From an uncultured Acidimicrobiales bacterium (GTDB lineage: Bacteria; Actinomycetota; Acidimicrobiia; Acidimicrobiales; SHLQ01), in NCBI GenBank assembly GCA_937934655.1, contig CALGZB010000058.1, forward strand, positions 6,579 through 70,578: a DNA stretch of 64,000 nt, read 5' to 3'. The notes below the pieces were generated by a model. That model did not search any database. It saw nothing but the letters and a program-made list of their open reading frames with translations, and had not been told where the DNA came from. The position numbers and the translations under genes were made by a program. Positions 14,245-43,523 of the stretch are shown piece by piece (the stretch's first letter is position 1; each line of letters begins with the position of its first letter).

Positions 14245-14341
14245 ACAAACCATCCGGGGAGCCCAAGAGCAGTTGGGCTGAGAGGACGAGCACGCTCGTC
14301 GACCCGCACACCTGAACTGGGTAATGCCAGCGGAGGAAGCC
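14245..14341 (+). promoter_or_regulatory. TPP (THI-box) riboswitch
   Basis: The core elements appear in order: GGGGAGCC...GGGCTGAGAG...ACCC...ACCTGAACTGGGTAATGCCAGCGGAGGAAG. It lies immediately 5' of a thiamine-type ABC binding protein, and the SD GGAGGAAG lies in the 3' part of the element. Confidence 0.85.
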
Positions 14342-17987: not shown

Positions 17988-18728
17988 TTAACCGGGTTGT
18001 TCCCAGTGCATTTGATCGATCGGGCTTGGACCCGCTCCCAGCTGCCAGTCGACCGCCCCAGCAATGCTTAGCGTGACCCAGGCCTTTGCTTTGGCAAGAG
18101 CCTCATCAAGCGAATCCCCATGAGCGAGCCGGGCCGTTACCCCGGCCGAGAAGGTGTCGCCAGTCCCACGGGTATTGCTTGTCTCGATGTGTTCGGCCCG
18201 TAGTTCGCTGCCGTCACTCACGACGTCATGGCCCCGGTTTGTCACTACCGACAGCTGAGGCAACGCCAGATCGATGAGATCAGCCTCGAAACGATTTGGC
18301 GTGGCAAGAACCGCAAACGGCAACAAACGTTGGTACGCCTCGATGGTGCTGATTTGGACGAACGGCTTTCCCGTGCGGTTCACGAGCACCGGGTCGACCA
18401 CCAGGTTCGGCAAACGACCTTGCGACGCATAGCTCGTGACGACATCGACCAGTCCGGCACTCGGGAGGAGTCCCGTCTTTACGGCGACCACGTCGAGATC
18501 ACCGAGGATCCCATCGAGCTGCGCCTGGAGCTGTGCGGGTTCGACCGGCCAGAACGCGTTGACGGCTTCGGTGGTCTGGGCAGTGACTGCGGTAAGCGCC
18601 GTAGCACCATGCACGCCAAACGCAGCGAAGGTACGCAAGTCGGCCTGCATCCCGGCCCCGCCAATAGGATCGGAGCCTGCGATGGTGAGCACAACCGGTG
18701 GCGTCATAGGGGACAAAGGGTACGGCAA
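17988..18728 (-). CDS. thiD: Hydroxymethylpyrimidine/phosphomethylpyrimidine kinase
   Basis: VLTIAGSDPIGGAGMQADLRTFAAFGVHGATALTAVTAQTT is the typical ThiD N-terminus. A C-terminal GTGDTFSA is present. Confidence 0.8.
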   Translation of the reverse strand: MPYPLSPMTPPVVLTIAGSDPIGGAGMQADLRTFAAFGVHGATALTAVTAQTTEAVNAFWPVEPAQLQAQLDGILGDLDVVAVKTGLLPSAGLVDVVTSYASQGRLPNLVVDPVLVNRTGKPFVQISTIEAYQRLLPFAVLATPNRFEADLIDLALPQLSVVTNRGHDVVSDGSELRAEHIETSNTRGTGDTFSAGVTARLAHGDSLDEALAKAKAWVTLSIAGAVDWQLGAGPSPIDQMHWEQPG

Positions 18729-23119: not shown

Positions 23120-23130
23120 GGTTGTCTCCC

Positions 23131-24450
23131 CTACGCCATCTGGAACTCGGGGCACAGGGCACCGAGAACAAAGCTGTTGGGCTGGATCGACCAGCTGTGT
23201 TTGTTGGCGTGTGCCGCGTTAACCCACGCTTCAATGCCCGCTCGCGTCTCGGCGCTGGGTTCATTGATGTCAAAGCTCGAGAAGATCAGATCAGCGGCTT
23301 CGCTTGCCGGGAGGTCCTCGATGCCGGCGAGCAGAGGAGTATCGCGGATCTTCCATTGCCATTCGGTCACGAAACGAGCTCGTGCCCAAGCGGTTGCGGT
23401 TGAGAGCCAGTACTCGTTTGTTCCCCAACCTGCGACGTCGGGTGGGTTGAACAAGATTTGCCCCATTGGCTCCATGTACCACCGCACTGGGATGTCATCG
23501 GTGGTCCAGCCGGTGACCTTCATGAGGGCAACGACGTACTCGACGGGGCTGCGCATGAGTGCATAGCGGGCATCGGGAGACCAGAAGTCATCTTCGAGAA
23601 GCACGGCCTTGACGAGTGCCTTCCCCTTCATGCCGGAGGCGATATAGGAGCGGGTCAGCCGGTTGAGGACCGCCTCTGATGGCGTGCCGGTTGCCAGGAA
23701 CTTCCAAAGTTTCTCGGCGATGTAGCGGGCCGTCAGCTGTTGTTGGGATCCGTGGACGAGTTCTTGGATGGTGTCGGGACCATTCCAACGCTTCCGAATA
23801 CCCCACAGCGTCTTGAAACCGCCATCGTGTTCGGACTTGTTGTACACGTAGGTCGGGTCGTACACCCAGCTGCCATTGCGGTTCACAAAACCTCGGGTGT
23901 TGTGACCCGTCCAGGCCTTGGCCATCGCGACAACATCGGCCTCGGAGAAGTTTCCAACGCCAACGGTAAACAGCTCCATGAGCTCCCGAGCGAAGTTCTC
24001 TTGCTCGGCCCCCGCAACATTGGTTTCGTTGTCGAGGTAGATAAGCATTGCTGGACCGAGCGAAACGTCGGTACAAAGTTCGGCGAGATCACCCATGCCC
24101 TTGGTACGAAACAGGTGGTTCTGGTCGTTCATGAGCTTCTGGTCATCGACCTTGTCCCATGAGGTTGCGAAGTGGCCGTGCCAGAACAGCGTCATCTTTT
24201 CGCGAAGTGGATCAGCACCCGTCGCCATTTCGGTGAGCCACCACTCTTGGGCGCGCAGGTTCTGCTGCCATTCGCTTTCGTTTGGGTGCTCGGGGGGCCG
24301 CGGCGCGTTGCCAAAGTCCATGACCGAGGCGACCGCCTCAGCGCGTGTGAGACCCTTGAGGTCTCGAGCCTGCCGTTTGGAACCGCCAAATCCTGCGCGA
24401 CGAAGGAGATGGGCAGCGTCGTGAAACGACACGATGTCTGTTGCTGGCAT
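23131..24450 (-). CDS. DUF1800 domain protein
   Basis: AAHLLRRAGFGGS, MTLFWHGHFATS and LIYLDN are typical of DUF1800, and the gene is paired with DUF1501 as usual. Confidence 0.75.
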   Translation of the reverse strand: MPATDIVSFHDAAHLLRRAGFGGSKRQARDLKGLTRAEAVASVMDFGNAPRPPEHPNESEWQQNLRAQEWWLTEMATGADPLREKMTLFWHGHFATSWDKVDDQKLMNDQNHLFRTKGMGDLAELCTDVSLGPAMLIYLDNETNVAGAEQENFARELMELFTVGVGNFSEADVVAMAKAWTGHNTRGFVNRNGSWVYDPTYVYNKSEHDGGFKTLWGIRKRWNGPDTIQELVHGSQQQLTARYIAEKLWKFLATGTPSEAVLNRLTRSYIASGMKGKALVKAVLLEDDFWSPDARYALMRSPVEYVVALMKVTGWTTDDIPVRWYMEPMGQILFNPPDVAGWGTNEYWLSTATAWARARFVTEWQWKIRDTPLLAGIEDLPASEAADLIFSSFDINEPSAETRAGIEAWVNAAHANKHSWSIQPNSFVLGALCPEFQMA

Positions 24451-28368: not shown

Positions 28369-30384
28369 TTAACGCTTGAGCTTGCAGCTCTTCATCGTGC
28401 CCTTGTCCTTGCTGAGACCAAAGGCATTGGAGAAGCAAATGTCTCGGTTGCCCTTCCCGCCGATAAGCGTGTCCTTGCCACCGTTGCCGCAGAGGATGTC
28501 GTTGCCACCCAGGCCTTCGATGCGGTCGTTGCCGTTGAAGCCGACGATGACATCGGAGCGGTTGGTGCCCTTCAATTTGTCAGCCTTGTTGGTACCCATG
28601 ATTGTGGCGAGTCGCCCACCGCATGGTGCGCTCGGAGCAATTGCCTCACCGTAACCAAAGGTCGAATCAGGGCCCTTCGTTCCACGGTCGACCGCATAGC
28701 GGGTGAGGAACGCCTCGAGCTGGGCTGGGGTGGTAGCGAGTCGAGCCGACAAGACCAGGGCTGCGTAACCGGCAACCGCTGGCGTCGCTGCGCTCGTCCC
28801 ATTGAAACAGGTATTGCCGTACGCCACGGTCTGTACGCAAGATGCGCCCGAGATTCGAGGAGTGATCCGACCATCGTTGGTTGGACCCTGCGAGCTGTAG
28901 GCAGCAATCGCCTTGCCGCGAGCAGGATCGATAGCACCGACACCCATCACGCCAGGGATCTTGCTATCGACGATCGGCACTGCGGCTGAGTATGCATCCT
29001 GCCAGTACTCGAGAACGCCATTGCCGACCATGATCTCGATGATGTCGCCATTCGAGCCGTTCCCGACTGCCGACCGCTGGAGAAACAGGAAGCCCGGTTC
29101 GCCGGTGTTGCAGTTGGAACCCTGAGCATATTCGAGCGGAAGTTGGCCGTTTGCGCCCTGTGGATCTTCGCCGGTGCTCACGAGCTGGTTGTTGAGGTTC
29201 ACCACGGCGATGTCGTAGTCGGTGGCGTTGGTTGCCGAGAACTGGAACTTGTTCGACGTGGTCGTGAAGTCGTTCCAGCGGGTCGAAATGACTCCGGCCG
29301 AGCAGGAGAAGAAGCCCAACGACTCATCGCCGGGAGCGAACTCGTGGAAGCCGTTGCCATCGGTGTCGGTGAAGACGCCGCGGTAGTAGATGCCATCGCG
29401 TTGCTGGGCTTCATTGCCGCCCGAGTTACCTGCGGCGGCGAAGAATGCCACGCCATTTGCTGCTGCTTTGGCCGCAATAGCGTTTTCGACACCCCGACCA
29501 TCGCCGGGCGAACGGAAGGCAATGCCACCCTGGGACATCGAGATGATGTCGGCGCCTTGGGCAATGGCCCAGTTGGTAGCGGCGATGACGTCGTTGGTGC
29601 GTCGAGCGGTTGCCAGGTAGAGCTCAGCGGAAGGCGCAAGTTCGTGGATGATCTCGGCAACGCCGACTCCGTGTTGGGCCGTCGCTCCGTTCACGGTCCA
29701 GATCTTGCAGGCTTGGCCGCCGTCGCGACAGAAGGTCTTCTTTGGCTTCGGCACGTCTTTCGAGCGTTGCGACTTGGTCCACGTGGTTCCGCCGAACGCA
29801 TCGATGATGACGATCTTGACGCCTTTGCCCGTGGTGCCAGCTTGATGCCAACGGGTGGCCCCGATCTTGGCGATCTGTTCGCCCTTGACCTGACCCTTGT
29901 TGGCGTTCGTCGAAAGCGACGGAATAACCCCAAGGACACCATCGATGTTGTTGATATCCGCGAGGATGAGCTGGTTGACCTTGGCGTGAACAGCGAGTCC
30001 TTCGCTGATGCCTTCAACCGAGCCGCCCAAGGCTTCGACCTGCGCAGCGACACCTTCGGTGTCGGTTGTTAGCACTTCGACCAGAAGCGAGCCGTCGGCC
30101 GCTTGGAGCCCACTGAATTGTGATGCCGCCACACCTGGTGCAGCTGCTGACGCTGCCGAGATGTCAAAGTCGCCGGCCAGGTCGGCTGAGTTGATTCCCG
30201 AGAAGTCCGGTTCGACCTCCCCTGATGCCGTGGCGGTGGATGGCGAGACCGAAAGCATCGCTGCCACCATCGCCAAAACCGTTACTAGTAGCACGGCAGC
30301 TTTCGCTGCACCCGCCGTTGCCAGCCGTTCACTCATCGTTCGCCCACGCTTTCTGTTGGTATGCGCCGTCGCCAACGGTCGCAT
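28369..30384 (-). CDS. Secreted S8 (subtilisin-like) serine peptidase with C-terminal RTX-type calcium-binding repeats
   Basis: Triad contexts: KIVIIDAFGG, HGVGVAEIIHE and NGTSAATPAVAGYAAL. C-terminus: GTNRSDVIVGFNGNDRIEGLGGNDILCGNGGKDTLIGGKGNRD. Start is set at ATG 30384, preceded by GGGGGAG (alternative ATG 30336). The 974-aa track ORF is an over-extension. Confidence 0.8.
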   Translation of the reverse strand: MRPLATAHTNRKRGRTMSERLATAGAAKAAVLLVTVLAMVAAMLSVSPSTATASGEVEPDFSGINSADLAGDFDISAASAAAPGVAASQFSGLQAADGSLLVEVLTTDTEGVAAQVEALGGSVEGISEGLAVHAKVNQLILADINNIDGVLGVIPSLSTNANKGQVKGEQIAKIGATRWHQAGTTGKGVKIVIIDAFGGTTWTKSQRSKDVPKPKKTFCRDGGQACKIWTVNGATAQHGVGVAEIIHELAPSAELYLATARRTNDVIAATNWAIAQGADIISMSQGGIAFRSPGDGRGVENAIAAKAAANGVAFFAAAGNSGGNEAQQRDGIYYRGVFTDTDGNGFHEFAPGDESLGFFSCSAGVISTRWNDFTTTSNKFQFSATNATDYDIAVVNLNNQLVSTGEDPQGANGQLPLEYAQGSNCNTGEPGFLFLQRSAVGNGSNGDIIEIMVGNGVLEYWQDAYSAAVPIVDSKIPGVMGVGAIDPARGKAIAAYSSQGPTNDGRITPRISGASCVQTVAYGNTCFNGTSAATPAVAGYAALVLSARLATTPAQLEAFLTRYAVDRGTKGPDSTFGYGEAIAPSAPCGGRLATIMGTNKADKLKGTNRSDVIVGFNGNDRIEGLGGNDILCGNGGKDTLIGGKGNRDICFSNAFGLSKDKGTMKSCKLKR

Positions 30385-30714
30385 TTTCTCCCCCACCGGT
30401 GGCTGCCAGCTTGGCAGCTTCTGTCCGGTGACGCCATCTCGACTTCTTTCCACAGCGGCTGCGGAACGAGTGTCAAACTCGAGACAGGTATCACTTTTCC
30501 AAGCATTTGGAGGAAAAACAAACGCGGACAGTGTTTTTTCTCCGTCGTTTGGTTGACTCCCCTTCGGAAATCCACTCGTGTTCTCTTGTTCGCCCATGAC
30601 GTCCTCGCTCGCATTTGGTTGGTGTGTTCGGATTGCTCCACCTCTGAGATGCGCCCACTTGTCGGGAAAGTTTCGGCGTCGCCAAGTTTCTTTTCCGCAA
30701 ACTAGAGTGCTGCT

Positions 30715-31566
30715 GTGAGTGAACTTTCTTGGAGTAACGACGCCGCGAGCAGCGCCCGCCGACCCATCGTTGTGGCCGCATTCGCCGGCTATTTCAACGC
30801 CGGTGGGGCCGCAACGGCAGCCATCGACTGGCTCCATGAGCAACACGACCCGGACGAACTGGCCATTATCGACCCCGAGACCTTCTTCGACTTCCAACAA
30901 GAACGGCCGCAGGTCCGGTTGGTCGAGGGAAAGCGCATCATCGACTGGCCCGACACTCGTTGTTATGCCCTTAGCCCCGGTGAAGAACACGATGTTCTTA
31001 CGATTACCGGCGTCGAACCCCATCTCCGCTGGCGCACCTTCGCCGAACAAGTCGTCGAGATCGGCCGAGAAACCGGCGCCGAGCTCTTCGTAACCCTCGG
31101 AGCAGCCCCGGGCGTTGTGCCCCACACCAGGCCTATCGAAGTGGTGGGCAGCGCCACCGATGCCGAACTCGCGTTGCGTCTTGGTCTTGGTCGGCCGAGC
31201 TACGAGGGGCCAAGCGGCGTCATGGGCGTTCTCCACGACGCCATCGACTCGGCCGGAATGCCGGTGATATCGCTTCGCGTCTCGGTACCGCACTACGTCA
31301 TGGGCGAGCCCAGCCCGAAAGCCACCCAGGCGCTACTTCGGAAGCTCGAGCAGGTCACGGGCGTGCCAACCAACGGCGACGGACTCGACCAGCAGGCCAA
31401 GAGCTGGCAATCGATGGTCGATGCTGCCGTGGTCAATGATCCCGAAGTTCTGTCCTATGTGGGCGAACTCGAAGCGACATTCGACGCGAAAGACTCCCTC
31501 GACATCACCGTCGACTTGGCCGCCGAGGTCGAGAACTTTCTGCGCGAACGCAACGAAGGCAACTAA
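30715..31566 (+). CDS. PAC2 (proteasome assembly chaperone 2-like) family protein
   Basis: PIVVAAFAGYFNAGGAATAAIDWL, a later GVEPHLRW, and an acidic C-terminal tail are typical of the actinobacterial PAC2 family. Confidence 0.7.
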   Translation: MSELSWSNDAASSARRPIVVAAFAGYFNAGGAATAAIDWLHEQHDPDELAIIDPETFFDFQQERPQVRLVEGKRIIDWPDTRCYALSPGEEHDVLTITGVEPHLRWRTFAEQVVEIGRETGAELFVTLGAAPGVVPHTRPIEVVGSATDAELALRLGLGRPSYEGPSGVMGVLHDAIDSAGMPVISLRVSVPHYVMGEPSPKATQALLRKLEQVTGVPTNGDGLDQQAKSWQSMVDAAVVNDPEVLSYVGELEATFDAKDSLDITVDLAAEVENFLRERNEGN

Positions 31567-34500
31567 CGAGCCAGTTGCAGTTCGTCAACGTCGCCGTTCT
31601 GGACCAGCACTCCCCTCCCGGGAATCGCTGGCGTCGTGGTTCGGCTTGGCAGGTCGATACCCACCACGTCGCCGTCGAGAATGTCGGGCCACAACAACAC
31701 ACCACGTCGAGTCTGTTTGAACTCGTTCGTCCAGTGGCCGTACGCCGAACGAAGAAGATCGACCCGCCCCGCTGCGATGAGATGGACCGGGCTGTCTCGC
31801 TGGGCCAAGAGTTGCATGAACACTTCATGGTCGGAGATCGTCTCGACATCGTCGATGAGCACAACCACACGGCCCGAATGACCCCTGAACGCAGCGAGCG
31901 CCTCGATCGACACCGTCTCGATGCTGCCCGCTGGGCTCTGATCGCCCAACCACCGCACCACACAATCGGCCGAGTCCATCAGCTGCCACGCAATGCTCAA
32001 CAGCGCCGAGGTTTTGCCACTGCGGCCAGGTCCAACGACGAGTGCATGGTCGCCTCTGGCAAGCGAAAACCCTGCCGTCACCAGATCGGCGCTCCGTAAT
32101 CCAAGCGGGATCCAAAGGCGGTCGCCGTCGAGCGAAGCCTTTGGGGTCAGTGTCGTTCGGGAGAGTTCGTTCTCGAGAATCCCAACCACCAGTGGTGGAT
32201 GTTTGGCCGGCTCATGGGAGGCCGCCACTTCGACGTCAGCGTCATCGCAGAGCGCCACCTGCACCTCGAGGCCGTGCGGAGCAAGGTAGCCACGTCCGGC
32301 CGGCGGGTCGGGGTCGACGGCCCCCAGCACGCCGATCTCCCGCAGTTCTATCGTGTCGCTGGTTCGGAGGTACAGCCGAAACCTAGTGGCCGCCGCAAAG
32401 TGTCGAAGCTCAGTTGGCGTCGAGGCTGACACGAGTGAGTACACCCCGACCGAAGGCCCATCGAGATAGATGGTGTCGAGAAGGTCGAGCAGGTCGTACC
32501 GGTCGTCGTTTTCTCGACGGAACGTGTCGAGCCCGTCGAGCACTAAGAGGATTGGCGGGCCCGGTGCTTCGGTACCGGCTTTGCGCACCTTGATCTCGCG
32601 AGCCAGCAGGTCCAAGAGCCGTCGTTGTCGTTCGAATTCGACCGGGCCGACCACCGCTCCTACGTGCGGGATCGCGGCCAGGTCGCCAAACTCGCCCCGA
32701 CCAAGATCGAGCACGTAGAGATGCAGTTGGTCGGGGGTGAACTTTTGACACGCCGCAATGACCAAGGTGCGAAGCGTGCTGGTTCGGCCGCTCTTGGCGG
32801 TGCCAGCGACAAACCCGTTGCCAGCGGTGGGATTCCACTGCGCCGCAATCTTCTGCTGATTGCCGGGATCATCGACTTCGCCAAAGAGCGCACCGATTTC
32901 GTCGAACGGTGCGTATCGACGACGGACCTCGCCGAGCAACAGCGTGGTGTCGAGAGGCGCAGGCCACGGACAGCGAGGGTCGGTGAACCCTTGCGCACGA
33001 TGCACCTCGGCGATCGACTCGACAAGCACGTCAAGGTCGGTGCGCGGTTCGGGCTCATTCATCTCAGCCGTTGGTGACAGCGCTGGCACTAGAACCGGCA
33101 GAGTCGGCAGAACCGGCAGAACCGGCAGAGCCGCTAGTGGCAACTGGCCAAAGCCCACCGGCGACACGAAAGCGACGTCGGCTTCCGAGACCGGTCCCGT
33201 GGCGAGGGCAGACTGAAAGTTCACCAACTGGCCAGGCCCTAAGCGGAGGCACGCCCGCCCCGGGGCATCTCTGCCAATCGAGGCGGCGGCGTCGGTGCCG
33301 ATCACGTCGACCGAATCCACCGAATCCAGCATGCGCAGCGCAATCCGCAGGTTGGTATTGGTTCGAATGTTGTCGTTGATCGACCCGCTCGGACGTTGTG
33401 TTGCGAGCACCAAATGCACACCGAGACTTCGGCCCCGCTGGGCCACTCCCACCAACGAATCGACAAACTCTGGAAGCTCACTGACCAAGGTCGCAAACTC
33501 ATCGATGACCACGACCAGACGCGGAAGAGGTTCGAGTGCGGCATTGCCATCGCGGCGGCGTCGATACGACTCGATCGAGTCGGCGCCCGACTTCCGCAGG
33601 AGCCGCTCGCGGTACTCGAGTTCGGCATTGAGACACCGCAAGGCGCGCTCGCTCAGTTGCGGATCGAGATCGGTAACGACGCCGACGGTGTGCGGCAGAT
33701 CGGCGCATCGATCGAAGGCGCTTCCGCCCTTGTAGTCGATAAGAAGAAAGGCCAGATGTTCGGCATCCGCCGACGCCGACATCGAGGCGATCATCGATCG
33801 GAGGAGTTCGCTCTTTCCCGAACCGGTCGTTCCGCCGATGAGCGCGTGCGGTCCATCGGTGACGAGGTCGACGACAACCGGCCCGTGTTCGTCGCTGCCG
33901 ATCGGGGTCGGCAAACCAGGGTTGTTTCGACACATGGCCCAGCGGCGGGCGATGGTGTTTGGGTCAATCGGCCCGCCAAGCACCGACCCGAGCGAGACTC
34001 GGTTGGGAATTCCGGCTCCGGCCGCACTGACCTCGGGGTCGTCGAACCGGGCGAGTGCCGATGCCAAGGCCCAACCGGTGGCGCTCGACATTCCATCGAG
34101 GACTACCTCGACAGGTGACTTCACTTTGCTCGGGTCGACGAGAAGGCCGATGCCGTCGTCGCCGGCCGTTTCGATGACCACCGAGGTTTGAGACGGGAAC
34201 CAATCGAGACTCTCGGCAATGACGACAAGTGCACAACCATCGAGACCGGCCAGCGCTCGAACCGCGGCATGGCGTCCAGCGTGGAACTCGGGGCCATCGA
34301 CGATCACGACGGTACGAAACGACGACTCGGTCCCATGTTGCCGGGCCACGATGTCGGCTGCCGCAGCCACGGTTGTGGCGATGAGGGGTTTGTTGGTCGC
34401 CGATCGCCGGTCGGCCACATGGGGAAGTAGCCCAACCCAGCCCCAAGCCTCGGATTGATCAGCAGAGCACAGCACGACGAGTTCGACATCGGCGGGACCT

Positions 34501-35777
34501 TGGTTACAAACGACGTTGCCAACAAAGGACCGCACCACCGACTGGGCCACACTGCGCCGTCCGGTGACGCCGGTGACCGATCCCGACTCGAGGGAGACTT
34601 CAACCGGCACGTTTTGAAGCATGCCGACTCGATCGAGTAGCTCGACCACCTCGGGTTCGGCCGGCGCTTTGGGCGTTGACTGGACCTCCGGCGGCTGCGT
34701 CACGGCCGTGTCGAGGCGAAGATGGCCATGGCCGACCGTTACCTCGAGGAAGTCGGCGTGGCCGGGACGGCGCTCCCAAAGGTGGACACTTGGAGCGCTT
34801 GCCCGGCGACGCAGCTCGGCAAGATCGACGTGGCGGTCCTCGCGTCGCTGCCGCTCATGAACAAGACGGCTGCGGAGATCCGCCTCGAAGCGCTCGAGGT
34901 TTTGGGCAAAGGCCTTCTCGATCTGTTTGTGCTCGCGCCGAAGCCGATGTTTGTCCTCCCAGAGGTTCATCAGAGACATGATCGGACTCAAAATCATGAA
35001 CAACGCATAGAGCGGATTCCACAACAATGCCATCGCCACACCCATGATGAGCGGCGCCACAATCACCGCCCACGAGAACCGTGGCCGGTAGTGCTCGGGG
35101 CTTTTCCGAACGGGCAGTTCCAGCGGCACCGGAGACTCCGGCAACTCCTGACGGGGCATTCGGTTGAACACCAAGAGTGTTCCCGTTCCCGCATGCGTGC
35201 GCTGGGCGGCCAAGTGATGTGGAGCGTCCAACGATGGCCGGCGGGCCCGCACCGTGGCCGATCCGAGGCGCACTGCTTGGCCCCATGCCAGCGGCTCGAT
35301 CTGGTCGACCTTGCGGTCGTCAACCCGTACACCGTTGACAGATCCGACGTCGGCAATCGCCAGCGCTCCGGCGTTGGACACCTCAAGGCGGGCATGACGC
35401 CGAGAGACCGTTGGCAGACCCACGACCACGTCGGCGAACTCCGACCGTCCAACCAAATACCGACCCGGCTGGATCATCTGACGAATTCCCGAGTCGAGGC
35501 CGGCAACCACGTCGATGGATCCCAACGATGCACGTTGTCGGAAGGCTTCGGACAGCTCCGCGAGCCGCGAGCCCGGGTGGAGAGGCAGAGAAGCGAGGCG
35601 ATCGTCACGCCGAACCGGCACCCCGTCGACGCTGACGACATCCCCGAACCCCGCCGTTGCAGGCAGGGCGTCCAGGACATCACCGACGGTCTCGCCGGAC
35701 TGGGTACGACCATCGTCGGTTGCCAGCGATAGCGCCACAATCAGCGGACCGTCTCTGGTATCGACAACGATCTTCAT
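31563..35777 (-). CDS. EssC/EccC-like type VII secretion ATPase: beta-grasp-like N-terminus, FHA domain, 2 TM helices, three FtsK/SpoIIIE P-loop domains
   Basis: FHA: GRYLVGRSEFADVVVGLPTVSRRHARLEV...VNGVRV. TM: FSWAVIVAPLIMGVAMALLWNPLYALFMILSPIMSL. Walker A motifs: GGTTGSGKSE, GTAKSGRTS and GPGRSGKTS. Walker B-like motifs: VVVIDEF, LLVLDGLD and VVLIDDVE. Confidence 0.85.
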   Translation of the reverse strand: MKIVVDTRDGPLIVALSLATDDGRTQSGETVGDVLDALPATAGFGDVVSVDGVPVRRDDRLASLPLHPGSRLAELSEAFRQRASLGSIDVVAGLDSGIRQMIQPGRYLVGRSEFADVVVGLPTVSRRHARLEVSNAGALAIADVGSVNGVRVDDRKVDQIEPLAWGQAVRLGSATVRARRPSLDAPHHLAAQRTHAGTGTLLVFNRMPRQELPESPVPLELPVRKSPEHYRPRFSWAVIVAPLIMGVAMALLWNPLYALFMILSPIMSLMNLWEDKHRLRREHKQIEKAFAQNLERFEADLRSRLVHERQRREDRHVDLAELRRRASAPSVHLWERRPGHADFLEVTVGHGHLRLDTAVTQPPEVQSTPKAPAEPEVVELLDRVGMLQNVPVEVSLESGSVTGVTGRRSVAQSVVRSFVGNVVCNQGPADVELVVLCSADQSEAWGWVGLLPHVADRRSATNKPLIATTVAAAADIVARQHGTESSFRTVVIVDGPEFHAGRHAAVRALAGLDGCALVVIAESLDWFPSQTSVVIETAGDDGIGLLVDPSKVKSPVEVVLDGMSSATGWALASALARFDDPEVSAAGAGIPNRVSLGSVLGGPIDPNTIARRWAMCRNNPGLPTPIGSDEHGPVVVDLVTDGPHALIGGTTGSGKSELLRSMIASMSASADAEHLAFLLIDYKGGSAFDRCADLPHTVGVVTDLDPQLSERALRCLNAELEYRERLLRKSGADSIESYRRRRDGNAALEPLPRLVVVIDEFATLVSELPEFVDSLVGVAQRGRSLGVHLVLATQRPSGSINDNIRTNTNLRIALRMLDSVDSVDVIGTDAAASIGRDAPGRACLRLGPGQLVNFQSALATGPVSEADVAFVSPVGFGQLPLAALPVLPVLPTLPVLVPALSPTAEMNEPEPRTDLDVLVESIAEVHRAQGFTDPRCPWPAPLDTTLLLGEVRRRYAPFDEIGALFGEVDDPGNQQKIAAQWNPTAGNGFVAGTAKSGRTSTLRTLVIAACQKFTPDQLHLYVLDLGRGEFGDLAAIPHVGAVVGPVEFERQRRLLDLLAREIKVRKAGTEAPGPPILLVLDGLDTFRRENDDRYDLLDLLDTIYLDGPSVGVYSLVSASTPTELRHFAAATRFRLYLRTSDTIELREIGVLGAVDPDPPAGRGYLAPHGLEVQVALCDDADVEVAASHEPAKHPPLVVGILENELSRTTLTPKASLDGDRLWIPLGLRSADLVTAGFSLARGDHALVVGPGRSGKTSALLSIAWQLMDSADCVVRWLGDQSPAGSIETVSIEALAAFRGHSGRVVVLIDDVETISDHEVFMQLLAQRDSPVHLIAAGRVDLLRSAYGHWTNEFKQTRRGVLLWPDILDGDVVGIDLPSRTTTPAIPGRGVLVQNGDVDELQLAR

Positions 35778-35843
35778 GCCGGTACCTCATCGAGATGATT
35801 GCGCCTCGTTCTCTGTACCTCTCCCATGCCGAGCTCTCCCCCC

Positions 35844-36116
35844 TTAGGAATCCATTGCCGTTACGGCATTGGCTCGCTCCTTGCCGATAAACGCCCCGTT
35901 CTCCCGGAGCGCGGCTTGGAGTTTGATGAGGTTGGGAGCGAACTCTGACTCCCAAAGTTGACGAAACTGGCGAGCCCGCCGCCCATCCCAAGTCGTGCCA
36001 GCGAGCAGGCTGTTTAGCGATGTTTGGAGTTGTTCCACCTCGCTGCTGCGAGCCATGAATTCCTTCTTGAGGTTGACCATGTCGGCCTTGTTCATAATCA
36101 GAACTTCGTTACTCAT
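35844..36116 (-). CDS. WXG100 family type VII secretion target
   Basis: About 90 aa and helical, with the central motif TTWDGRRARQFRQLW (W-x-G). Start is set at ATG 36116 (MSNEVLIMNKADM...), preceded by GGAAAGAG. The track start at 36167 is possible. Confidence 0.75.
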   Translation of the reverse strand: MSNEVLIMNKADMVNLKKEFMARSSEVEQLQTSLNSLLAGTTWDGRRARQFRQLWESEFAPNLIKLQAALRENGAFIGKERANAVTAMDS

Positions 36117-36218
36117 TTTTGATGCTCTTTCCGTTTGGTTTGTTATCGATGACTTTTCATCAGTCACGGCATTTCGAGGGGAAGTCGAAAGGCTTTGGTT
36201 GCCGACCTGACCAGCTGG

Positions 36219-38156
36219 TCACGAGGTATGCACCTCAACCTCTTGCACCCCTTTGGTCGCCCATTCGGTGATGAGGTCCCAGAGCCGGAGGTAATGGCGG
36301 GCAAGGTCGGAGTCGCTGGTGGTCGCTTCGGCGAAGCCCTCGAGGAAGTCGCCGTAGCCCGGGTCGGAGATTGGCGGCGGAATGAGATTTCCGTCGATAA
36401 CGAACTCGCGAAGCCCAGCCACGTTGTCGACGGCCCCTGGGTGGTAGCCGAGGAGCTGGGCAAAGAGCGCAATCTGTAGCGGACGCACATCTTCAATGTC
36501 GTTGGAGCCACCGAACCCATCGATCGTGAAGAACAACTCGGCTAGCACGTCGGCAATCGAGTCGACATCGATTGGCGAAACCACGCCGCCAGCGTCGGCA
36601 ATGAACGCGAATGAGCTGTTGGCGAACCGGCGAAACATCAACCGAAGGAGCTGGAGATTCATGGTCGTGCCGGGGATCAAAACTCCGGGCGCAATCGTCA
36701 TCGCCGCTGACCACACCAGGTCGATGAGCGCTCGCCACTCCGACACCTTTTTCGGACCAGCCGGGCTTTCGCTTACGGCAAAGGTGAGGAACGCCAACAC
36801 CGTCTTGAGTTGATCCAGCGGTATCGCGGCATTCAACTCACCCGCAACTGGGTTGGCTTCGAAGCGGGCTACCAAGGTGGGGACCACCGACGCTAGGAAC
36901 CCGCTGGCGCCAACGATCAATGCCGCCATGGCATCGTCGCTAACCGCCATCCACCGAGCGAAGGCGCCCGAAGACTCGCCGAGTGGCCACCCACCTCCGG
37001 CCATCTCGGTGAAATGCCAAGAAGTAAGCCGAGCGGCGGCATCGCGGACTGGATCGCCGTTGATCGTCGCGTCAGGAGCGGTATCACGAAGCGCCAACAA
37101 CATGTCGTAGCTCTCGGCAAGCGCCTTCGTGAATCCGGCGATCGCTTTCGGGTCGCCGCTTGTCGCTCGATCGAAGAGCGCCGCAAGATGCTGGTCGGCG
37201 AGGGCGAGGAGGTTGCCGACCACTCGATTCGCTTCGGAAAGCGATTCGGCCGCGCTCTGACCGTTCGCGAGTTCGGTGGGCACGTCGAGGAGAAGCTCGA
37301 CCATTCCAGACATCTGTGCGAGCTCGAACGCTACCGCCGGATCGGTGACCGACCCGAGGACGCTGACGACTGGGTTCTCAAACCGAAAGAGCCACGCCCG
37401 TGCGGCGCTGTCGCTCTCGGCAAGGACTGTTGGGAGGGTCGCATAGCGCCAGGCGAAGGTCGGGTCCGACATCAGCGCGGCAACGCTGTCGAGCACCTCG
37501 GCGACCAATGCTGCTGGATAGCCGCCTGATCGCAGCAACATCACCATGCGGAGCACATCGAGCGGCTCGTCGCCTTGAAAAAGGTGGGCGGCATCGAGCG
37601 GCTGTGCTGAGTGAGCGTAGGCAACGAGCAACCCGAGCGGTGTCACGAGATCCTCGACACCAGCGATGAGGTCGGGGTGGGTGAGGAGGCGGTCGACATC
37701 GGCGGCGGTAAGTCGGCGGATGACATCGATCGCCACCCCGGTGTGGCCGGCCGAGCGGGCGAGCAGCTCCTCGAGGGTTTCGCGAATGGCCTGCAGATCG
37801 TTGCCGGTGCGAAGTCGGCTTACGAGTTCGGTCGTGGCGATCCGTTGCAAAGCCGGAAGGCGCCGAGGCAATTCGAGAACTTGTAAGCGGTGCCCACCAC
37901 GATCCGGATACCGGGCGCGAATGTAGTTGAGACGCCACTCGAGGTCTCGGGCTCCAGCCTCGGTGCGCTCGATCAACCCTCGCAGCACGTCGGGCACCGA
38001 CCCGTAACCCGGGCCCATATGGGCTTGCGCACTCGACCAGGGTGGGGCCAGCTTGCGTCGGACTTCGTCGAGAGCCCGGCTGGTGGACCGGTAGGTGTCG
38101 ACAAGGATGTCTGCGGCCTCGAGGTCGATGGCGAGCTTTTCGGTTCCGCCGCTCAC
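36219..38156 (-). CDS. Large (645 aa) predominantly helical hypothetical protein in the T7SS-like operon
   Basis: No motif recognised. The N-terminal 90 aa or so look like a helical hairpin. The gene is translationally coupled to the upstream 137-aa gene and lies directly upstream of the WXG100 gene. Confidence 0.55.
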   Translation of the reverse strand: MSGGTEKLAIDLEAADILVDTYRSTSRALDEVRRKLAPPWSSAQAHMGPGYGSVPDVLRGLIERTEAGARDLEWRLNYIRARYPDRGGHRLQVLELPRRLPALQRIATTELVSRLRTGNDLQAIRETLEELLARSAGHTGVAIDVIRRLTAADVDRLLTHPDLIAGVEDLVTPLGLLVAYAHSAQPLDAAHLFQGDEPLDVLRMVMLLRSGGYPAALVAEVLDSVAALMSDPTFAWRYATLPTVLAESDSAARAWLFRFENPVVSVLGSVTDPAVAFELAQMSGMVELLLDVPTELANGQSAAESLSEANRVVGNLLALADQHLAALFDRATSGDPKAIAGFTKALAESYDMLLALRDTAPDATINGDPVRDAAARLTSWHFTEMAGGGWPLGESSGAFARWMAVSDDAMAALIVGASGFLASVVPTLVARFEANPVAGELNAAIPLDQLKTVLAFLTFAVSESPAGPKKVSEWRALIDLVWSAAMTIAPGVLIPGTTMNLQLLRLMFRRFANSSFAFIADAGGVVSPIDVDSIADVLAELFFTIDGFGGSNDIEDVRPLQIALFAQLLGYHPGAVDNVAGLREFVIDGNLIPPPISDPGYGDFLEGFAEATTSDSDLARHYLRLWDLITEWATKGVQEVEVHTS

Positions 38157-38566
38157 GAGTCGCCTGCCTCCCGCTCTGCTTTTGCTGCTGCTTCTTTGGC
38201 TGCTGCTTCTTCTTTGGCTGCAGCTTCCTCATCGCGAAGCGTCCGTGCGTGACGACTGGCCGAACGGGCATCGGCATCGGCGCCGAGCGCAGCCCGCTCG
38301 AGAGCGGCCGCCATGAGCGCGGTGGCCTCGCTCGCCGACCCGCAGCTCGCTCGTATCGACGCCAGTTCTTGACGCGACCGGTGAGCAGCAGCGCTTATCC
38401 AGATTCCTTCGAGGTGACGGCTGCTGGCGAGGTCGTACGCCGAGGTGAGGGGCGCCGAAATCGAGCGGATCGAACGAGCGAGTTCGCGAAATTCGCGCGC
38501 CAGCCCCGAGGCCTCCTTTGCCTGCCGCTCATACTCGCGAATCGAAAATCCTGTTGCCGACGGCAC
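38153..38566 (-). CDS. Small (137 aa) helical hypothetical protein with Glu/Ala/Lys-rich tail; first gene of the T7SS-like operon
   Basis: The sequence is coiled/helical (REYERQAKEASGLAREFRELARSI ... EEAAAKEEAAAKEAAAKAEREAG). Its stop overlaps the start of the next gene. Confidence 0.5.
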   Translation of the reverse strand: MPSATGFSIREYERQAKEASGLAREFRELARSIRSISAPLTSAYDLASSRHLEGIWISAAAHRSRQELASIRASCGSASEATALMAAALERAALGADADARSASRHARTLRDEEAAAKEEAAAKEAAAKAEREAGDS

Positions 38567-38733
38567 GACAAGCGCCTTCCCAAACCAACATCCGCTCCAT
38601 CACCAAGGATGCGCGGACGGAAATCGCTTGCGTCTACCGAAAGCGTTTCTGAAGTTGTCGGGGGAAGTGGACAACAGTCGCCGATAAGCGGGGCAGGAAC
38701 GCCCTCAGCCGTAACACGTCATCGGCTTGTGCT

Positions 38734-38771
38734 TGATATATATTGAAATTACATGAAAAGCACTATAGTGC
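38734..38771. promoter_or_regulatory. AT-rich island with the 12-bp palindrome GCACTATAGTGC; candidate promoter/operator of the T7SS-like operon
   Basis: gatatatattgaaattacatgaaaagcactatagtgc is very atypical for this GC-rich DNA. It lies about 170-200 nt upstream of the 38566 start and contains TATAGT / TATATA -10-like hexamers on the minus strand. Confidence 0.4.
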
Positions 38772-38785
38772 CAAACCGAAGATTC

Positions 38786-39496
38786 CTAGTCGGTATCGGA
38801 ACGCAGAACCGCTAGCGGCGTGCGGAACAAGATCTTCAGGTCGGTGAAGAGACTCACGGTCTGCACGTATTCGAGATCGAGCATGACGCCGTCGATGATG
38901 TCGCCACGGCGTTCGGGCGAAATCTGCCAAAGTCCCGTCATACCGGGCTTTACCTGGTTACGAGGATGGTCGACCAGCCCGTGCTGGGCAGCCTTGCCCC
39001 ACACCTCAGGCCGGGGACCGACCAAGCTCATCTTGCCCGAAAGCACGTTGAAGATCTGGGGAAGCTCGTCGAGGCTCAGCGCACGGAGCAAACGACTTCC
39101 AAGAGTGGTTCGGTCGTACACGTCGACCACGAGACCAACAGCGTTACCGTCGGTCAGATCGATGATCGGCTCAGGCCGCATCGTGCGGTACTTGAGAATC
39201 CGAAACGGACGGCCATCCTCGCCAACGCGAAGCTGCCGGTAGAACAGCGGGCGACCAATCGATAGCACGACCACCAAAGCAGCGAACGCCAGCAATGGCA
39301 CCATGGCAACCGCGATCAGCGAACCGACCACAAGGTCGAAGGCGCGTTTGCCTGTGGTGGCGTACCACGTAGGTATCAGCGCCGGAGTGGCGAGGCTACG
39401 CGGGGATGTAAGTACCCGTCCGTTGAATGGGGGGAACTCTGTTGTTGAAGCTTGTACGAGCTCGGAGTCCGAGGGCTCGGTAACAGCCATTTTCAC
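38786..39496 (-). CDS. Bacterial sugar transferase (polyprenyl-phosphate hexose-1-phosphate transferase, WbaP/EpsL C-terminal type)
   Basis: KRAFDLVVGSLIAVAMVPLL..., PLFYRQLRVGEDGRPFRILKYRTM and DELPQIFNVLSGKMSLVGPRP. Confidence 0.85.
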   Translation of the reverse strand: MKMAVTEPSDSELVQASTTEFPPFNGRVLTSPRSLATPALIPTWYATTGKRAFDLVVGSLIAVAMVPLLAFAALVVVLSIGRPLFYRQLRVGEDGRPFRILKYRTMRPEPIIDLTDGNAVGLVVDVYDRTTLGSRLLRALSLDELPQIFNVLSGKMSLVGPRPEVWGKAAQHGLVDHPRNQVKPGMTGLWQISPERRGDIIDGVMLDLEYVQTVSLFTDLKILFRTPLAVLRSDTD

Positions 39497-40355: not shown

Positions 40356-43300
40356 ATGGCGACGCATCTCCCACCTCCGATTCCCCCGTCAGCAGACCTG
40401 CTGGCACTTGTGCGCGCCTCGTTTCGCGGAGCGCCGCACCCGATCGTCCTCTTCAACGAGAACCTTCGGGTCCTCACGGCCAACCCCGCAGCGGCCGAAT
40501 TGCTTGGCTGCACCGTGGCTGGAGCGGTTGGAAAACCCGTCTTCGCCAACCTCAAAGACATCGACCCCGACGACCTCAACGCATTGAGCGAGCTCCTTCG
40601 CCACGAACGACAAACCGTTGAAATCGACCTCGCTGCAGGAGCGTTAGCGGTCGTGACCGGGTTCGAAGACCCCGACGCTGCTGGACACCTCCTCCTGCAA
40701 CACGTCGAACACGCCGACAAAAACCTCTTTGCGCTTCACGTCACCACAACAAGCGAACAGCGGGGGGCCGAGCTGGCCTACCAGCGATCGCTTCGACTCG
40801 AATCGCTCCTCAGCTCGATCAGCGCCGACTTCCTCGACACTCGATGGGAATCGGTCAACGACGACGTTCGACGAGCCATGGGCCGCCTCGGTCGGGTCCT
40901 CGACCTCGTGCGACTCCAAGTCCGCGAGACATCGCTGGCTTCCAAGACCTCTCGCCTCATCGTCGAGTGGGCCGCCCCCGGCTTCCCCGAAAGCGATGCC
41001 GTCAACCACTCGATCTCATTCTCGAGCCTCTCCCCTCTCTCCCCCCTCTCTCCGGGTGCAGAGAGCCCCGACGCAAACCATCCTGGCTCAGACAGGTCTG
41101 AAACGTTCTCGACCGTCACCCCCATCTCTGGTTCGGTCGCAAACCTCGGCCTCGGCCTCGCCCTCTGCGCCGCCGACCCGGACGACTCAGCAATCGTTAC
41201 CCCCATCGCCATTGGTCGCCACCAAGTCGGTGCCGTCGTCGCTCAGCGAAGCTCGGGACAGGAATGGACCGACGACGAGACTCACGCACTCTCGACCTTT
41301 GCCAACCTCGTCATGCAGCTGCGAAGCCGCAGCACCGTCGAGGCCGCAAGCCGTCAACGCCTGAGCGTCGAGGATCTGGTTCGCCAGGTCGCAACCGACC
41401 TCATCGACGTCACCCCCGAAGATGCCCGCGAAACAACCGAGGCCGCGCTTGCCCGACTCGGTGTCTTCTTCGATGTGCGCCGAGTGATGCGCTGGCGTTT
41501 CGAAGCCGACGGCAGCAAACTCACCGCTACCGAAGCCTGGAGCGGCGACGCCGTCGAAGGTCTCGGCCTCCGACCGCGAGAACTCACCGTCAAGCGCCAC
41601 CCCGAACTTCATGAAGTGATCGGCCTTTCCGAGCCCGTGGGCCACCTCTTCGATACCGAACACCTCTTCGGCGGCCGCACTGGCGAAGGCAACCCCGAAC
41701 GACTTCCGGAAGGGTCCTACCTTCTCGTCCCGCTTGTCAACGGCGGAGTCACCAGCGGCGCATTGGTTTTTGAACGCCAACGAAATGTGGCGTGGCACGA
41801 ACTCGAAATCCGGGCCCTCGAAACCATCGCGACGCTCGTCGGACAGCTCGACGCCCGAGTCGAAGCCGAGCGCTACCTCAGCTCGTCATTTACCCAAGCG
41901 CCCGTTGGCATTCTGCTCACCGACGAAAGCAACCAGATCGTTGCGTCAAACCCAGCGTTCGCCAAGTTCCTCGGCGTTGCCGAAGACGAACTCATCGGCA
42001 ACGAGGTCGACGATTACCTCAAACGCGGCGGGTCCTGGCTCGATCGTCCAACCGAAGGCCACCAGGGCGAAATCTCGTTCTACCGGCCTGATCATCGCAC
42101 CGTCTGGGGTCGGGTCAACTCGGTACGGATCCCTGGACCCGAGGGCCTGTCGGACAACGTGCTTTCCTACGTCGAAGACGTCACCCGCGCTCGCCGCAAC
42201 CGGGAACGGCTCGAGTTCCAGGCCAACCACGACGAGCTCACCGGTCTGGCGAATCGCCGAGTACTGGTCGATGAACTCACCTCGTGTGTCGGAGTCCCAA
42301 GCTCTCCCGACGATGCCGCCGTGCTCATGATCGACCTCGACCGGTTCAAGGTCGTCAACGACTCACTCGGCCACAGCGTCGGCGACGAAATTCTCTGCAC
42401 CGTCGCCGACCGTATTCAAACTGCGGTCCGCGAATCGGACCTGGTGTCTCGCCTCGGCGGCGATGAATTCGTCGTCTTGCTCCGTGGACCTGTCGGCATC
42501 CTCGAAGCGGTCTCGGTTGCCCAACGGATCATCGAACTCATCAAAGAACCAATCCGATGCGGCATCCATGAGGTCTTCGTCACCGGCAGTGTCGGCATCG
42601 CCTTCCCGAACCACGACGATCGCAACGTCGAAGACGTTCTCAGTCACGCTGACGCTGCGATGTACGACGCGAAGAGCAAAGGCCGCAACCGCTACGAGAC
42701 CTTCGACGAACGCAGCCGCGAGATGGTGGCTAACCGAATCGAAACCGAAAGCCATCTTCGACGGGCCATCGAAAACCACGAGCTCGAGGTGTACTACCAG
42801 CCCGAATTCGACCTCGTGAAGAACGAGATCGTCGGCGCCGAAGCCCTCGTCCGATGGAATCACCCCGAAAAGGGCGTGCTTACCGCCGGCGTCTTTATCG
42901 AGATCGCCGAAGACACCGGCCTTGTTGTCGATATCGGCAGCTTCGTGTTGAAGGAAGCCTGCCGGCAGGGAGTCGAGTGGAACGCCCGGCGCGACGTGCC
43001 ACTCATCATCCGGGTGAACCTTTCGGCCCGACAGCTCGAACGGCGAACCATCGTCGAAGAAGTGCTGAGCGTCTTGCACGAAACCGGTCTTCCGGCCGAA
43101 CACCTCTGTCTCGAGATCACCGAGACTGCCCTCATGACCGACGTCGAAGAGTCCATGCGGCTCCTAACCCAGTTGCGTGACACCGGCGTGCACCTCGCCG
43201 TGGACGACTTCGGTACCGGCTTTAGCTCGCTGGCCTACCTCAAACGTTTCCCCGTCGACATCCTCAAGATCGACCAGGCATTCATCCGGAACCTCGACAG

Positions 43301-43523
43301 TGATGCCACCGACGAAGCAATCGTGCTGTCGATCATCAAACTCGCCGAAGCTCTGGACCTCGAAGTGGTCGCTGAAGGCATCGAAGAAAACGCTCACCAC
43401 ACCAAACTGGTAGAGATGGGTTGTCAACGAGGTCAAGGCTTTGGTTTGGCCCGACCTGCCCCTGCCAACAAGGTCGCAGAGCTCCTGTCGCTCAAACCAG
43501 CTCATTCACCGATAACCTCCTGA
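40356..43523 (+). CDS. Cytoplasmic multi-sensor (PAS/GAF) GGDEF-EAL protein, both catalytic motifs intact
   Basis: RLGGDEFVVLL, EALVRWNHPEKG, EITE and DDFGTGFSSLAYL, preceded by about 600 aa of PAS/GAF-like sensor region. Confidence 0.85.
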   Translation: MATHLPPPIPPSADLLALVRASFRGAPHPIVLFNENLRVLTANPAAAELLGCTVAGAVGKPVFANLKDIDPDDLNALSELLRHERQTVEIDLAAGALAVVTGFEDPDAAGHLLLQHVEHADKNLFALHVTTTSEQRGAELAYQRSLRLESLLSSISADFLDTRWESVNDDVRRAMGRLGRVLDLVRLQVRETSLASKTSRLIVEWAAPGFPESDAVNHSISFSSLSPLSPLSPGAESPDANHPGSDRSETFSTVTPISGSVANLGLGLALCAADPDDSAIVTPIAIGRHQVGAVVAQRSSGQEWTDDETHALSTFANLVMQLRSRSTVEAASRQRLSVEDLVRQVATDLIDVTPEDARETTEAALARLGVFFDVRRVMRWRFEADGSKLTATEAWSGDAVEGLGLRPRELTVKRHPELHEVIGLSEPVGHLFDTEHLFGGRTGEGNPERLPEGSYLLVPLVNGGVTSGALVFERQRNVAWHELEIRALETIATLVGQLDARVEAERYLSSSFTQAPVGILLTDESNQIVASNPAFAKFLGVAEDELIGNEVDDYLKRGGSWLDRPTEGHQGEISFYRPDHRTVWGRVNSVRIPGPEGLSDNVLSYVEDVTRARRNRERLEFQANHDELTGLANRRVLVDELTSCVGVPSSPDDAAVLMIDLDRFKVVNDSLGHSVGDEILCTVADRIQTAVRESDLVSRLGGDEFVVLLRGPVGILEAVSVAQRIIELIKEPIRCGIHEVFVTGSVGIAFPNHDDRNVEDVLSHADAAMYDAKSKGRNRYETFDERSREMVANRIETESHLRRAIENHELEVYYQPEFDLVKNEIVGAEALVRWNHPEKGVLTAGVFIEIAEDTGLVVDIGSFVLKEACRQGVEWNARRDVPLIIRVNLSARQLERRTIVEEVLSVLHETGLPAEHLCLEITETALMTDVEESMRLLTQLRDTGVHLAVDDFGTGFSSLAYLKRFPVDILKIDQAFIRNLDSDATDEAIVLSIIKLAEALDLEVVAEGIEENAHHTKLVEMGCQRGQGFGLARPAPANKVAELLSLKPAHSPITS

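Follow-up and report, generated by a model that had tools for sequence, protein, structure and literature searches.

A WXG100 protein and a ubiquitin-like/FHA-headed EssC ATPase form a candidate minimal type VII secretion-like unit, with an accessory orphan gene pair, in uncultured Acidimicrobiales

How a locus resembling a type VII secretion system (T7SS) could operate when one ATPase and one WXG100 protein are its recognisable machine parts is the question raised by a four-gene module of an uncultured Acidimicrobiales bacterium. The module lies on the minus strand at positions 31563-38566 of a 64-kb stretch of DNA, which was analysed at its full length and is called the window here. It encodes a 137-aa helical protein, a 645-aa protein, a WXG100 protein and a 1404-aa EssC/EccC-type ATPase. 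Judged from sequence comparison with related loci, the conserved machine unit is two genes, encoding the WXG100 protein and an EssC with an N-terminal ubiquitin-like domain (Ubl) and an FHA domain, and the 137-aa/645-aa pair is a clade-specific accessory. For the module as a whole we lean, by a little, toward a minimal T7SS-like export unit with the 645-aa protein as its cargo and the 137-aa protein as the partner of that cargo. The features of the module, all on the minus strand, were as follows.

38567..38785, minus strand: intergenic region 5' of the 137-aa gene, AT-rich, likely promoter of the four-gene unit
38153..38566, minus strand: gene of the 137-aa helical protein, by open reading frame (ORF) call
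36219..38156, minus strand: gene of the 645-aa all-alpha orphan protein, by ORF call
35844..36116, minus strand: probable WXG100 gene, 90 aa, within a 107-aa ORF at 35844-36167, by ORF call
31563..35777, minus strand: gene of the EssC/EccC-type ATPase, 1404 aa, by ORF call
35547..35777, minus strand: ubiquitin-like (YukD-like) beta-grasp domain, EssC residues 1-77, by profile and AlphaFold2 (AF2)
35241..35522, minus strand: single FHA domain, EssC residues 86-179, by Pfam, AF2 and Foldseek
34971..35084, minus strand: two transmembrane (TM) helices, EssC residues 232-269, Kyte-Doolittle (KD) maximum 2.27

The GTG start of the 645-aa gene overlapped the TGA stop of the 137-aa gene as GTGA, and the two genes are therefore translationally coupled. 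Translation of the WXG100 gene probably begins at the ATG at 36116, for a product of 90 aa, because this ATG was preceded by the Shine-Dalgarno-like GGAAAGAG and the orthologues were 88-91 aa long. From the stop of the 645-aa gene, the gap was 52 nt to the upstream GTG of the WXG100 ORF and 103 nt to the probable ATG, and 66 nt separated the WXG100 gene from EssC. The 5' end of the WXG100 gene formed an AT-rich patch (GC content 0.46 at 36000-36224 versus about 0.62 around it), and the intergenic region 5' of the 137-aa gene was also AT-rich (0.49-0.50 at 38625-38850 versus about 0.62 nearby). The latter region (38567-38785) included TTTTCATGTAATTTCAATATATATCAAG. A sigma-70 consensus scan of the region upstream of the 137-aa gene gave no match, and we infer that the promoter of the four-gene unit likely lies in it. 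A first-pass annotation of this DNA had described the four minus-strand ORFs, the coupling of the first two and the AT-rich start of the WXG100 gene, and the coordinates, the GTGA overlap and the base composition bore it out on all three.

The ATPase was built in the order Ubl, FHA, two TM helices, a DUF/stalk region and three FtsK/SpoIIIE P-loop domains. Pfam matched the FHA domain (E=9e-11) and FtsK_SpoIIIE (E=1.5e-53), hydropathy revealed the two TM helices, and Walker A motifs were located at residues 649, 992 and 1249. The FHA domain, two TM helices and three P-loops read at first pass thus stood, whereas the N-terminal Ubl (residues 1-77) had been overlooked and that domain list was incomplete. 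A profile of 32 EssC N-termini searched against the PDB matched ISG15 (2e-5), SAMP2 (5e-5) and ubiquitin-like proteins (about 1e-4), and Pfam YukD was matched by three of the 32 N-termini, with a best E of 8e-4. The AF2 model of the EssC head, based on a 41-sequence alignment, had a predicted local distance difference test score (pLDDT) of 86 and showed a b-b-a-b-b-b domain followed by a single FHA sandwich. A hidden Markov model (HMM) of the Ubl matched 61 of 120 EssC relatives, in each case N-terminally, and the same pattern was seen by eye in many others. In Bacillus subtilis, the FHA and DUF domains of EssC clamp free YukD, which is required for assembly (PMC12637312). Because YukD occupies this position and is needed there, it is plausible by analogy that the cis-fused Ubl is the functional equivalent of a free YukD/EsaB-type component.

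The FHA domain kept the residues that bind phosphothreonine (pThr), namely G110-R111, S125-x-x-H128 and N148-G149. In the 41-sequence alignment G110, S125 and H128 were invariant and R111 and G149 nearly so; N148 was read from the window sequence only. Foldseek analysis of the modelled FHA domain returned the pThr-binding FHA domains of CT664, GarA and OdhI, with TM-scores of 0.8-0.9 and root-mean-square deviations of 1.2-2 Å. In the divergent, pair-bearing lineage of loci L017 (8239-11859) and L018, an EssC of about 1200 aa kept the Ubl and lacked the FHA domain, with the FNRxPR/TM region directly after the Ubl, and a regular-expression search found just one canonical Walker A motif in this type of EssC. 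It therefore appears that evolution can dispense with the FHA domain, whereas the Ubl is retained.

Among NCBIfam models, the best match was TIGR03928 (EssC), with 461 bits against a cut-off of 778 over residues 514-1268, followed by TIGR03924 (EccCa), with 385 against 509 over residues 222-862; a third model scored 272 against 347, and the EccCa/b cut-offs were missed. Since all scores fell under the equivalog cut-offs, the ATPase is a relative of EssC and EccC and an equivalog of neither. An N-terminal FHA domain had been regarded at first pass as a firmicute hallmark that clashed with the actinobacterial background of the window, which carries DUF3097, luciferase-like oxidoreductases and PAC2 as markers. 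However, FHA-bearing EssC relatives of about 1400 aa and 30-38% identity were widespread in Actinomycetota (Cellulomonas, Actinomadura, Geodermatophilus, Frankia, Rothia, Nocardioides, Streptomyces, Solirubrobacteraceae and others), and the T7SSd has been published (PMC11217815). The tension between FHA domain and host is therefore not real. EssC itself diverged far more quickly than the housekeeping genes beside it (51% versus about 80% identity to L005). Conservation was highest in domain D1 and lowest in the Ubl, the D1-D2 linker (residues 866-925, with proline-rich LPVLP repeats) and D3.

The 90-aa protein is, by its sequence, a divergent, highly conserved WXG100 (EsxA-like) core component, in keeping with the first-pass call of a WXG100 protein of about 90 aa. 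It carried T-W-D-G at the turn, with W43 and G45 invariant in eight orthologues. The single-sequence Pfam WXG100 match stayed below threshold (E=1.7e-3; 19 bits versus a gathering score of 27.3), and the orthologue of L003 reached E=5e-4. The orthologue profile searched against the PDB matched Geobacillus EsxA (3zbh) best, over the full length with E=4.6e-4, and then other ESAT-6-like chains. Across lineages the WXG100 protein was 83-94% identical, compared with 51-70% for EssC and 77-92% for the flanking PAC2 and Bac_transf genes. Its gene was the slowest-evolving one of the module, as fits a core component. A literature search found no paper that links Acidimicrobiia with WXG100 proteins.

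In this setting, the parts that usually accompany such an ATPase were looked for. No long ORF of the 64-kb window had a Pfam match to EccB/D/E, EssA/B, EsaA, a free YukD, a Ser/Thr kinase or a true mycosin, and the first-pass statement that no EccB/D/E, MycP, EssA/B or EsaA could be recognised was thereby upheld. One explanation is that the view is incomplete and that the locus belongs to a canonical or T7SSd-type system whose TsdD, TsdH, TsdI or Ecc-like parts are encoded elsewhere, which would be compatible with an exported 645-aa cargo. The T7SSd (TsdA/TsdC/TsdD/TsdH/TsdI) of Olsenella and Bifidobacterium is an actinobacterial, FHA-type system with a pThr-competent FHA domain on TsdC and no free ubiquitin-like protein (Garrett, Higginson & Palmer 2024, PMC11217815), and its existence argues for this explanation. 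So do the retention of every pThr-binding residue in the FHA domain, which implies a kinase partner not present in the window, and the fact that just 64 kb of the genome are visible. On the other hand, about 25 loci, with flanks of 8-10 kb where contigs allowed and with contigs of 0.4-4 Mb included, had no such partner linked to EssC, although the published T7SS subtypes are defined by conserved linkage of such genes. We regard an incomplete view as possible, on balance a minority prospect.

Comparison across loci revealed which genes travel together. A total of 31 loci were gathered by looking up the encoding contigs and by scanning metagenomes with the WXG alignment, and were screened by HMMs, blastp and tblastn. 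The four genes occurred in the same order in L001-L008, L012 and L015-L018, about ten related metagenomic lineages; since the order recurs, the cluster is not a chance arrangement, and the neighbourhood check proposed at first pass thus found the pair together with WXG100 and EssC. Among 185,579 species genomes only two gave a hit, both of them metagenome-assembled genomes of uncultured Acidimicrobiales. The pair stood directly upstream of the WXG100 gene in all loci whose WXG100 was at least 49% identical to that of the window, which are the window itself and the loci just listed. In contrast, all 14 loci whose WXG100 was at most 43% identical (L013, L019-L031) were without the pair and had WXG100 and EssC alone. 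Wherever the contig was long enough (L013, L017-L025, L030 and L031), the WXG100 gene was immediately followed by an EssC homologue; L026-L029 were too short or ambiguous for this adjacency. The neighbours of the two-gene unit were metabolic in nine loci (enoyl-CoA hydratase (ECH), acyl-CoA dehydrogenase, luciferase-like and S9 peptidase genes), the check having covered L013, L019-L025 and L028 of the 14 pair-less loci.

The pair was also found on its own. The 137-aa/645-aa cassette was present in L009 and L010 without adjacent WXG100 or EssC genes, and a protein of the 645-aa type stood alone in L011. The absence of the pair from 14 loci, its presence without EssC in L009 and L010, the lack of a conserved TM segment and its fast evolution are the reasons for which we divide the module into a two-gene unit and an accessory pair. 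In Cellulomonas wangsupingiae (CP101989, L014), an FHA-EssC was accompanied by two WXG100 genes, with no Ecc/Ess core genes at the locus. These two identical 98-aa WXG100 genes (L014 14542-16198) flanked ORFs of 48 and 276 aa without a Pfam match and lay downstream of the FHA-EssC gene, beside a sortase gene. The C. wangsupingiae locus is a further minimal arrangement in an actinobacterium, with inserts of its own.

The 645-aa protein had no sequence homologue in Pfam, NCBIfam or the PDB, and the 137-aa protein had no Pfam or NCBIfam match, so the first-pass view that neither has a characterised homologue stood. The 645-aa family was tiny: a set of 5.8 billion proteins contained 5 clusters of it, and a set of 1.84 billion representatives contained 9; a repeat search with a 12-sequence alignment of the family returned the same 5 proteins. 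A scan of metagenome contigs with alignments of this family yielded nothing, and the WXG alignment was productive instead. The most conserved feature of the protein was a DLxWR motif, which closes the second helix of the N-terminal hairpin, and conservation spanned the whole length rather than just an N-terminal targeting domain. No immunity-type gene followed the 645-aa gene. Because the full length is conserved and such a gene is missing, it is unlikely that the 645-aa protein is a polymorphic antibacterial toxin of the classical kind. The pair was 36-65% identical, and the 645-aa protein 41-65%, in lineages whose flanking genes were 77-92% and WXG100 proteins 83-94% identical.

Hydropathy analysis across the family showed no signal peptide-like and no conserved TM segment in either protein of the pair. 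Close relatives of the 645-aa protein had one or two hydrophobic helices (KD 1.8-2.2), and a membrane protein was therefore considered; this candidate was rejected since the helices were not kept in the distant members P0008-P0013.

The first-pass annotation had offered substrates, chaperones or a replacement membrane or adaptor component as roles for the two proteins. The last of these would make the pair structural or adaptor parts of the machine that replace EssB/EsaA or EccB/D/E and tether or gate EssC. In the clade with WXG100 at least 49% identical the pair is indeed always present, at a fixed position and in a fixed orientation, and full-length conservation of the 645-aa protein, the missing immunity-like gene, the hydrophobic helices of close relatives and the absence of any other core gene from the window all agree with such parts. 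However, 14 loci with WXG100 and EssC had neither the pair nor an analogue alongside, the cassettes of L009 and L010 were without EssC, the hydrophobic segments were lost in distant members, and the pair evolved faster than WXG100 and the flanking genes. Additionally, L017 has the pair although its EssC is without FHA, and the pair is therefore not tied to the FHA head. Of the roles first offered, substrate plus partner or chaperone was the best fit, and a replacement core was disfavoured because the pair is absent from the 14 WXG100 and EssC loci, occurs elsewhere without EssC and has no conserved TM segment. We consider machine parts unlikely.

What, then, would the 137-aa protein do? An alignment of nine orthologues showed an invariant Trp56 within the motif G-x-W-x-[S/G], placed at the predicted turn of a hairpin, with W-T-G in L010 and W-A-G in L017 as variants. 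The orthologue profile gave marginal full-length matches to five ESAT-6-like chains of the PDB (MAB_3112, E=0.048; EsxB/EsxA, 0.05-0.12). The likeness to WXG100 proteins is a lead rather than a demonstration. The 137-aa gene was always immediately 5' of the 645-aa gene. The two overlapped in the window, L001, L002, L005-7, L010 and L012, adjoined each other in L009 and lay about 60 nt apart in L008. From these sequence features, the 137-aa protein probably serves the 645-aa protein as a WXG100-like hairpin partner or as a targeting factor.

A different explanation of the same linkage is that the pair has nothing to do with secretion and is an independent cytoplasmic cassette, merely syntenic with the T7SS genes in one Acidimicrobiales lineage. 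The cassettes without T7SS genes in L009 and L010, the solitary 645-aa type of L011 and the lack of detectable WXG100, LXG or PPE homology are in accord with it, and linkage alone is a weak argument since the Bac_transf, PAC2, GGDEF-EAL and Zn_peptidase genes are syntenic as well. Yet the adjacency of the pair to WXG100 and EssC persisted as the 645-aa protein diverged to about 25% identity or less, and also in L008, where the window's flanking genes were undetected on a short contig (5.5 kb). The genes share an orientation and are separated by short gaps, a WXG-type Trp sits at the hairpin turn of the 137-aa protein, and orphan substrate pairs away from the machine are normal for T7SSs (PMC13622651). 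We therefore think it quite improbable that the pair is unrelated to secretion.

The reading of the 645-aa protein as cargo with the 137-aa protein as its partner draws on its resemblance to known cassettes. By analogy, the pair behaves like the T7SS substrate/partner cassettes PE-PPE, LXG-Lap and effector plus small-hairpin pairs, and candidate substrates beside small WXG100-like hairpin genes have been reported from new T7SS subtypes (PMC11217815) and from Actinomycetaceae (PMC13622651). Several results weigh against it. In hhalign, neither the 137-aa profile (probability <1%) nor the N-terminal domain of the 645-aa protein matched the WXG alignment significantly, and Pfam found no WXG100 domain in nine members of the 137-aa family and no match, including LXG, WXG or PPE, in 12 N-terminal domains of the 645-aa family; nor did any Pfam family recur consistently among the members. 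The AF2 model of the 645-aa protein, based on a five-sequence alignment, was all-helical, with helices 12-47 and 54-82, and had a mean pLDDT of 55, which is low confidence; Foldseek of this model against the PDB returned generic alpha-solenoids only (TM-score at most 0.26), and the N-terminal profile gave only apolipoprotein-type helical noise. The hydrophobic helix at about 410-430 in close relatives (KD 2.0-2.2) could be a membrane segment of a subclade, membrane partners of EssC could be encoded outside the 64-kb window, and the fixed place of the pair in the four-gene clade could be plain synteny, which PAC2 and Bac_transf share.

Taken with the observed gene content, domain architecture, conservation and linkage patterns and absence of core genes from the 64-kb window, analogy with known systems suggests how an export unit with a 645-aa cargo might work; export itself, the pairing of the 137-aa and 645-aa proteins, a channel role of EssC and phospho-regulation are what we infer. 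The locus would be a minimal, chromosomally inherited T7SS-like unit of Acidimicrobiales with a lineage-specific cargo cassette. EssC may form a hexameric membrane motor and channel, as in T7SSa and T7SSb, and the WXG100 protein would be a co-secreted activator and substrate, whose dimer may contact the C-terminal ATPase domain through the conserved tail ...A-[ML]-D. The Ubl-FHA head could set the assembly or activity state, possibly when a Ser/Thr kinase, encoded at another place in the genome, phosphorylates threonine. A four-helix-bundle secretion signal, similar to PE-PPE, EsxA-EsxB and LXG-Lap, would arise from the 137-aa hairpin together with the hairpin at the N-terminus of the 645-aa protein, and the latter protein would leave the cell as the exported cargo. 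A bolder version of this proposal, which we hold to be rather doubtful, is that the two-gene unit is self-sufficient and the simplest known T7SS, with EssC as the channel, the Ubl in place of YukD/EccD and gating by pThr, and with the 645-aa protein as a new class of cargo that has a WXG-like partner.

The surroundings of the module were also analysed. A PAC2-family (proteasome assembly chaperone-like) gene at 30715-31566 on the plus strand converged on EssC, with a 4-nt overlap with the EssC stop, and this convergence was kept in L003, L005, L012, L017 and L018. Beyond it, an S8 subtilase of about 644 aa (28369-30303) had a signal peptide and, at its C-terminus, RTX calcium-binding repeats. 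It was tried as a mycosin and rejected, with 54 bits versus 279 for TIGR03921, RTX repeats and no C-terminal TM anchor. It was set apart from EssC by the convergent PAC2 gene and was missing from the corresponding position in L012. The S8 protease is not part of the module because PAC2 intervenes, its mycosin score is low and it is absent in L012. A 974-aa ORF at 28369-31293 (minus strand) was an artefact, in which the S8 gene is prolonged at its 5' end across PAC2, antisense to it.

Four large GGDEF-EAL proteins with PAS, GAF or HAMP sensors were encoded at 18738-21617 (minus), 40356-43523 (plus), 47716-51141 (minus) and 54418-56130 (minus), an unusually dense cyclic di-GMP signalling neighbourhood around the module; the gene at 40356-43523 was syntenic in L001, L005 and L012. 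A DUF1800/DUF1501 gene pair (21683-24450, minus), with a Tat (twin-arginine translocation) signal on DUF1501, was near the module in relatives as well, DUF1800 in L012. Farther away, a thiamine pyrophosphate (TPP) riboswitch (14245-14357, plus; Rfam RF00059, 59 bits) lay directly 5' of an ATP-binding cassette (ABC) transporter operon, which consisted of a substrate-binding protein (14324-15376), a permease (15340-16989) and an ATPase (16986-17963), and a phosphomethylpyrimidine kinase gene (17988-18728) was near this operon. The region is probably a thiamine or hydroxymethylpyrimidine (HMP) uptake locus.

The T7SS field is now cataloguing architectures beyond ESX/Ess and asking which parts are essential. 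The present locus and about 25 related loci point to a widespread actinobacterial arrangement in which only the ATPase and one WXG100 are linked. Here the ATPase itself carries, by fusion, the ubiquitin-like component that is otherwise near-universal, and this may explain why a YukD-like gene was not found in the published T7SSd. If two genes do suffice for export, mechanistic and structural studies would gain an attractive minimal system. The pair is an orphan, fast-evolving candidate cargo family and offers a concrete hypothesis for secretion by environmental actinobacteria. The points of interest are thus the fused Ubl-FHA-EssC, the recurrent two-gene arrangement and the orphan candidate cargo family.

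Among known systems, the T7SSd resembles the module in its actinobacterial host, in a single WXG100 gene next to an EssC-type ATPase with the pThr motif in its FHA domain, and in having no separate YukD-like ORF. It differs in its TsdD kinase, single-TM TsdH and giant Ig-repeat TsdI, none of which was found in the window or the about 25 related loci; these showed no Pkinase match and, beside the module, no large protein with a Sec signal. The Ubl is fused to EssC in the present module, in a comparison with the T7SSd that follows its published description, and the 137-aa/645-aa pair is not described for the T7SSd. A search of the data of PMC11217815 for taxa related to the present ones gave no match. 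The T7SSa/ESX systems share the phylum and the three-domain, EccC-like layout of the ATPase, and the coupled small and large helical genes recall PE-PPE or EsxB-EsxA pairs, orphan copies included. In contrast, EccB, EccD, EccE and mycosin were not found in the window, EccC is without FHA and Ubl, the present pair has no PE/PPE homology, and no YxxxD/E motif was seen by eye after the hairpins, for which no systematic search was made.

The T7SSb/Ess systems of Bacillota (EsxA, EsaA, EssA, EsaB/YukD, EssB/YukC and EssC/YukB) share a single EsxA-like WXG100, an N-terminal FHA region on EssC and a ubiquitin-like module tied to the FHA/DUF region; TIGR03928 was also the best NCBIfam match of the ATPase and 3zbh the best PDB match of the WXG100 profile. 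However, the present EssC has one pThr-competent FHA domain and the T7SSb two tandem, degenerate ones, the Ubl is fused here and free there, EssA, EssB (a pseudokinase) and EsaA were not found in the window, and the host is actinobacterial. The LXG/Lap cassettes of the T7SSb also combine a large protein with a helical N-terminus and small hairpin partners, beside the machine or elsewhere, but the 645-aa protein had no LXG match, a conserved C-terminal region, no immunity gene and one partner instead of two or three. Compared in this way at the level of sequence, the module is plainly of the T7SS type, and by gene content it stands outside T7SSa, T7SSb and T7SSd as these are defined.

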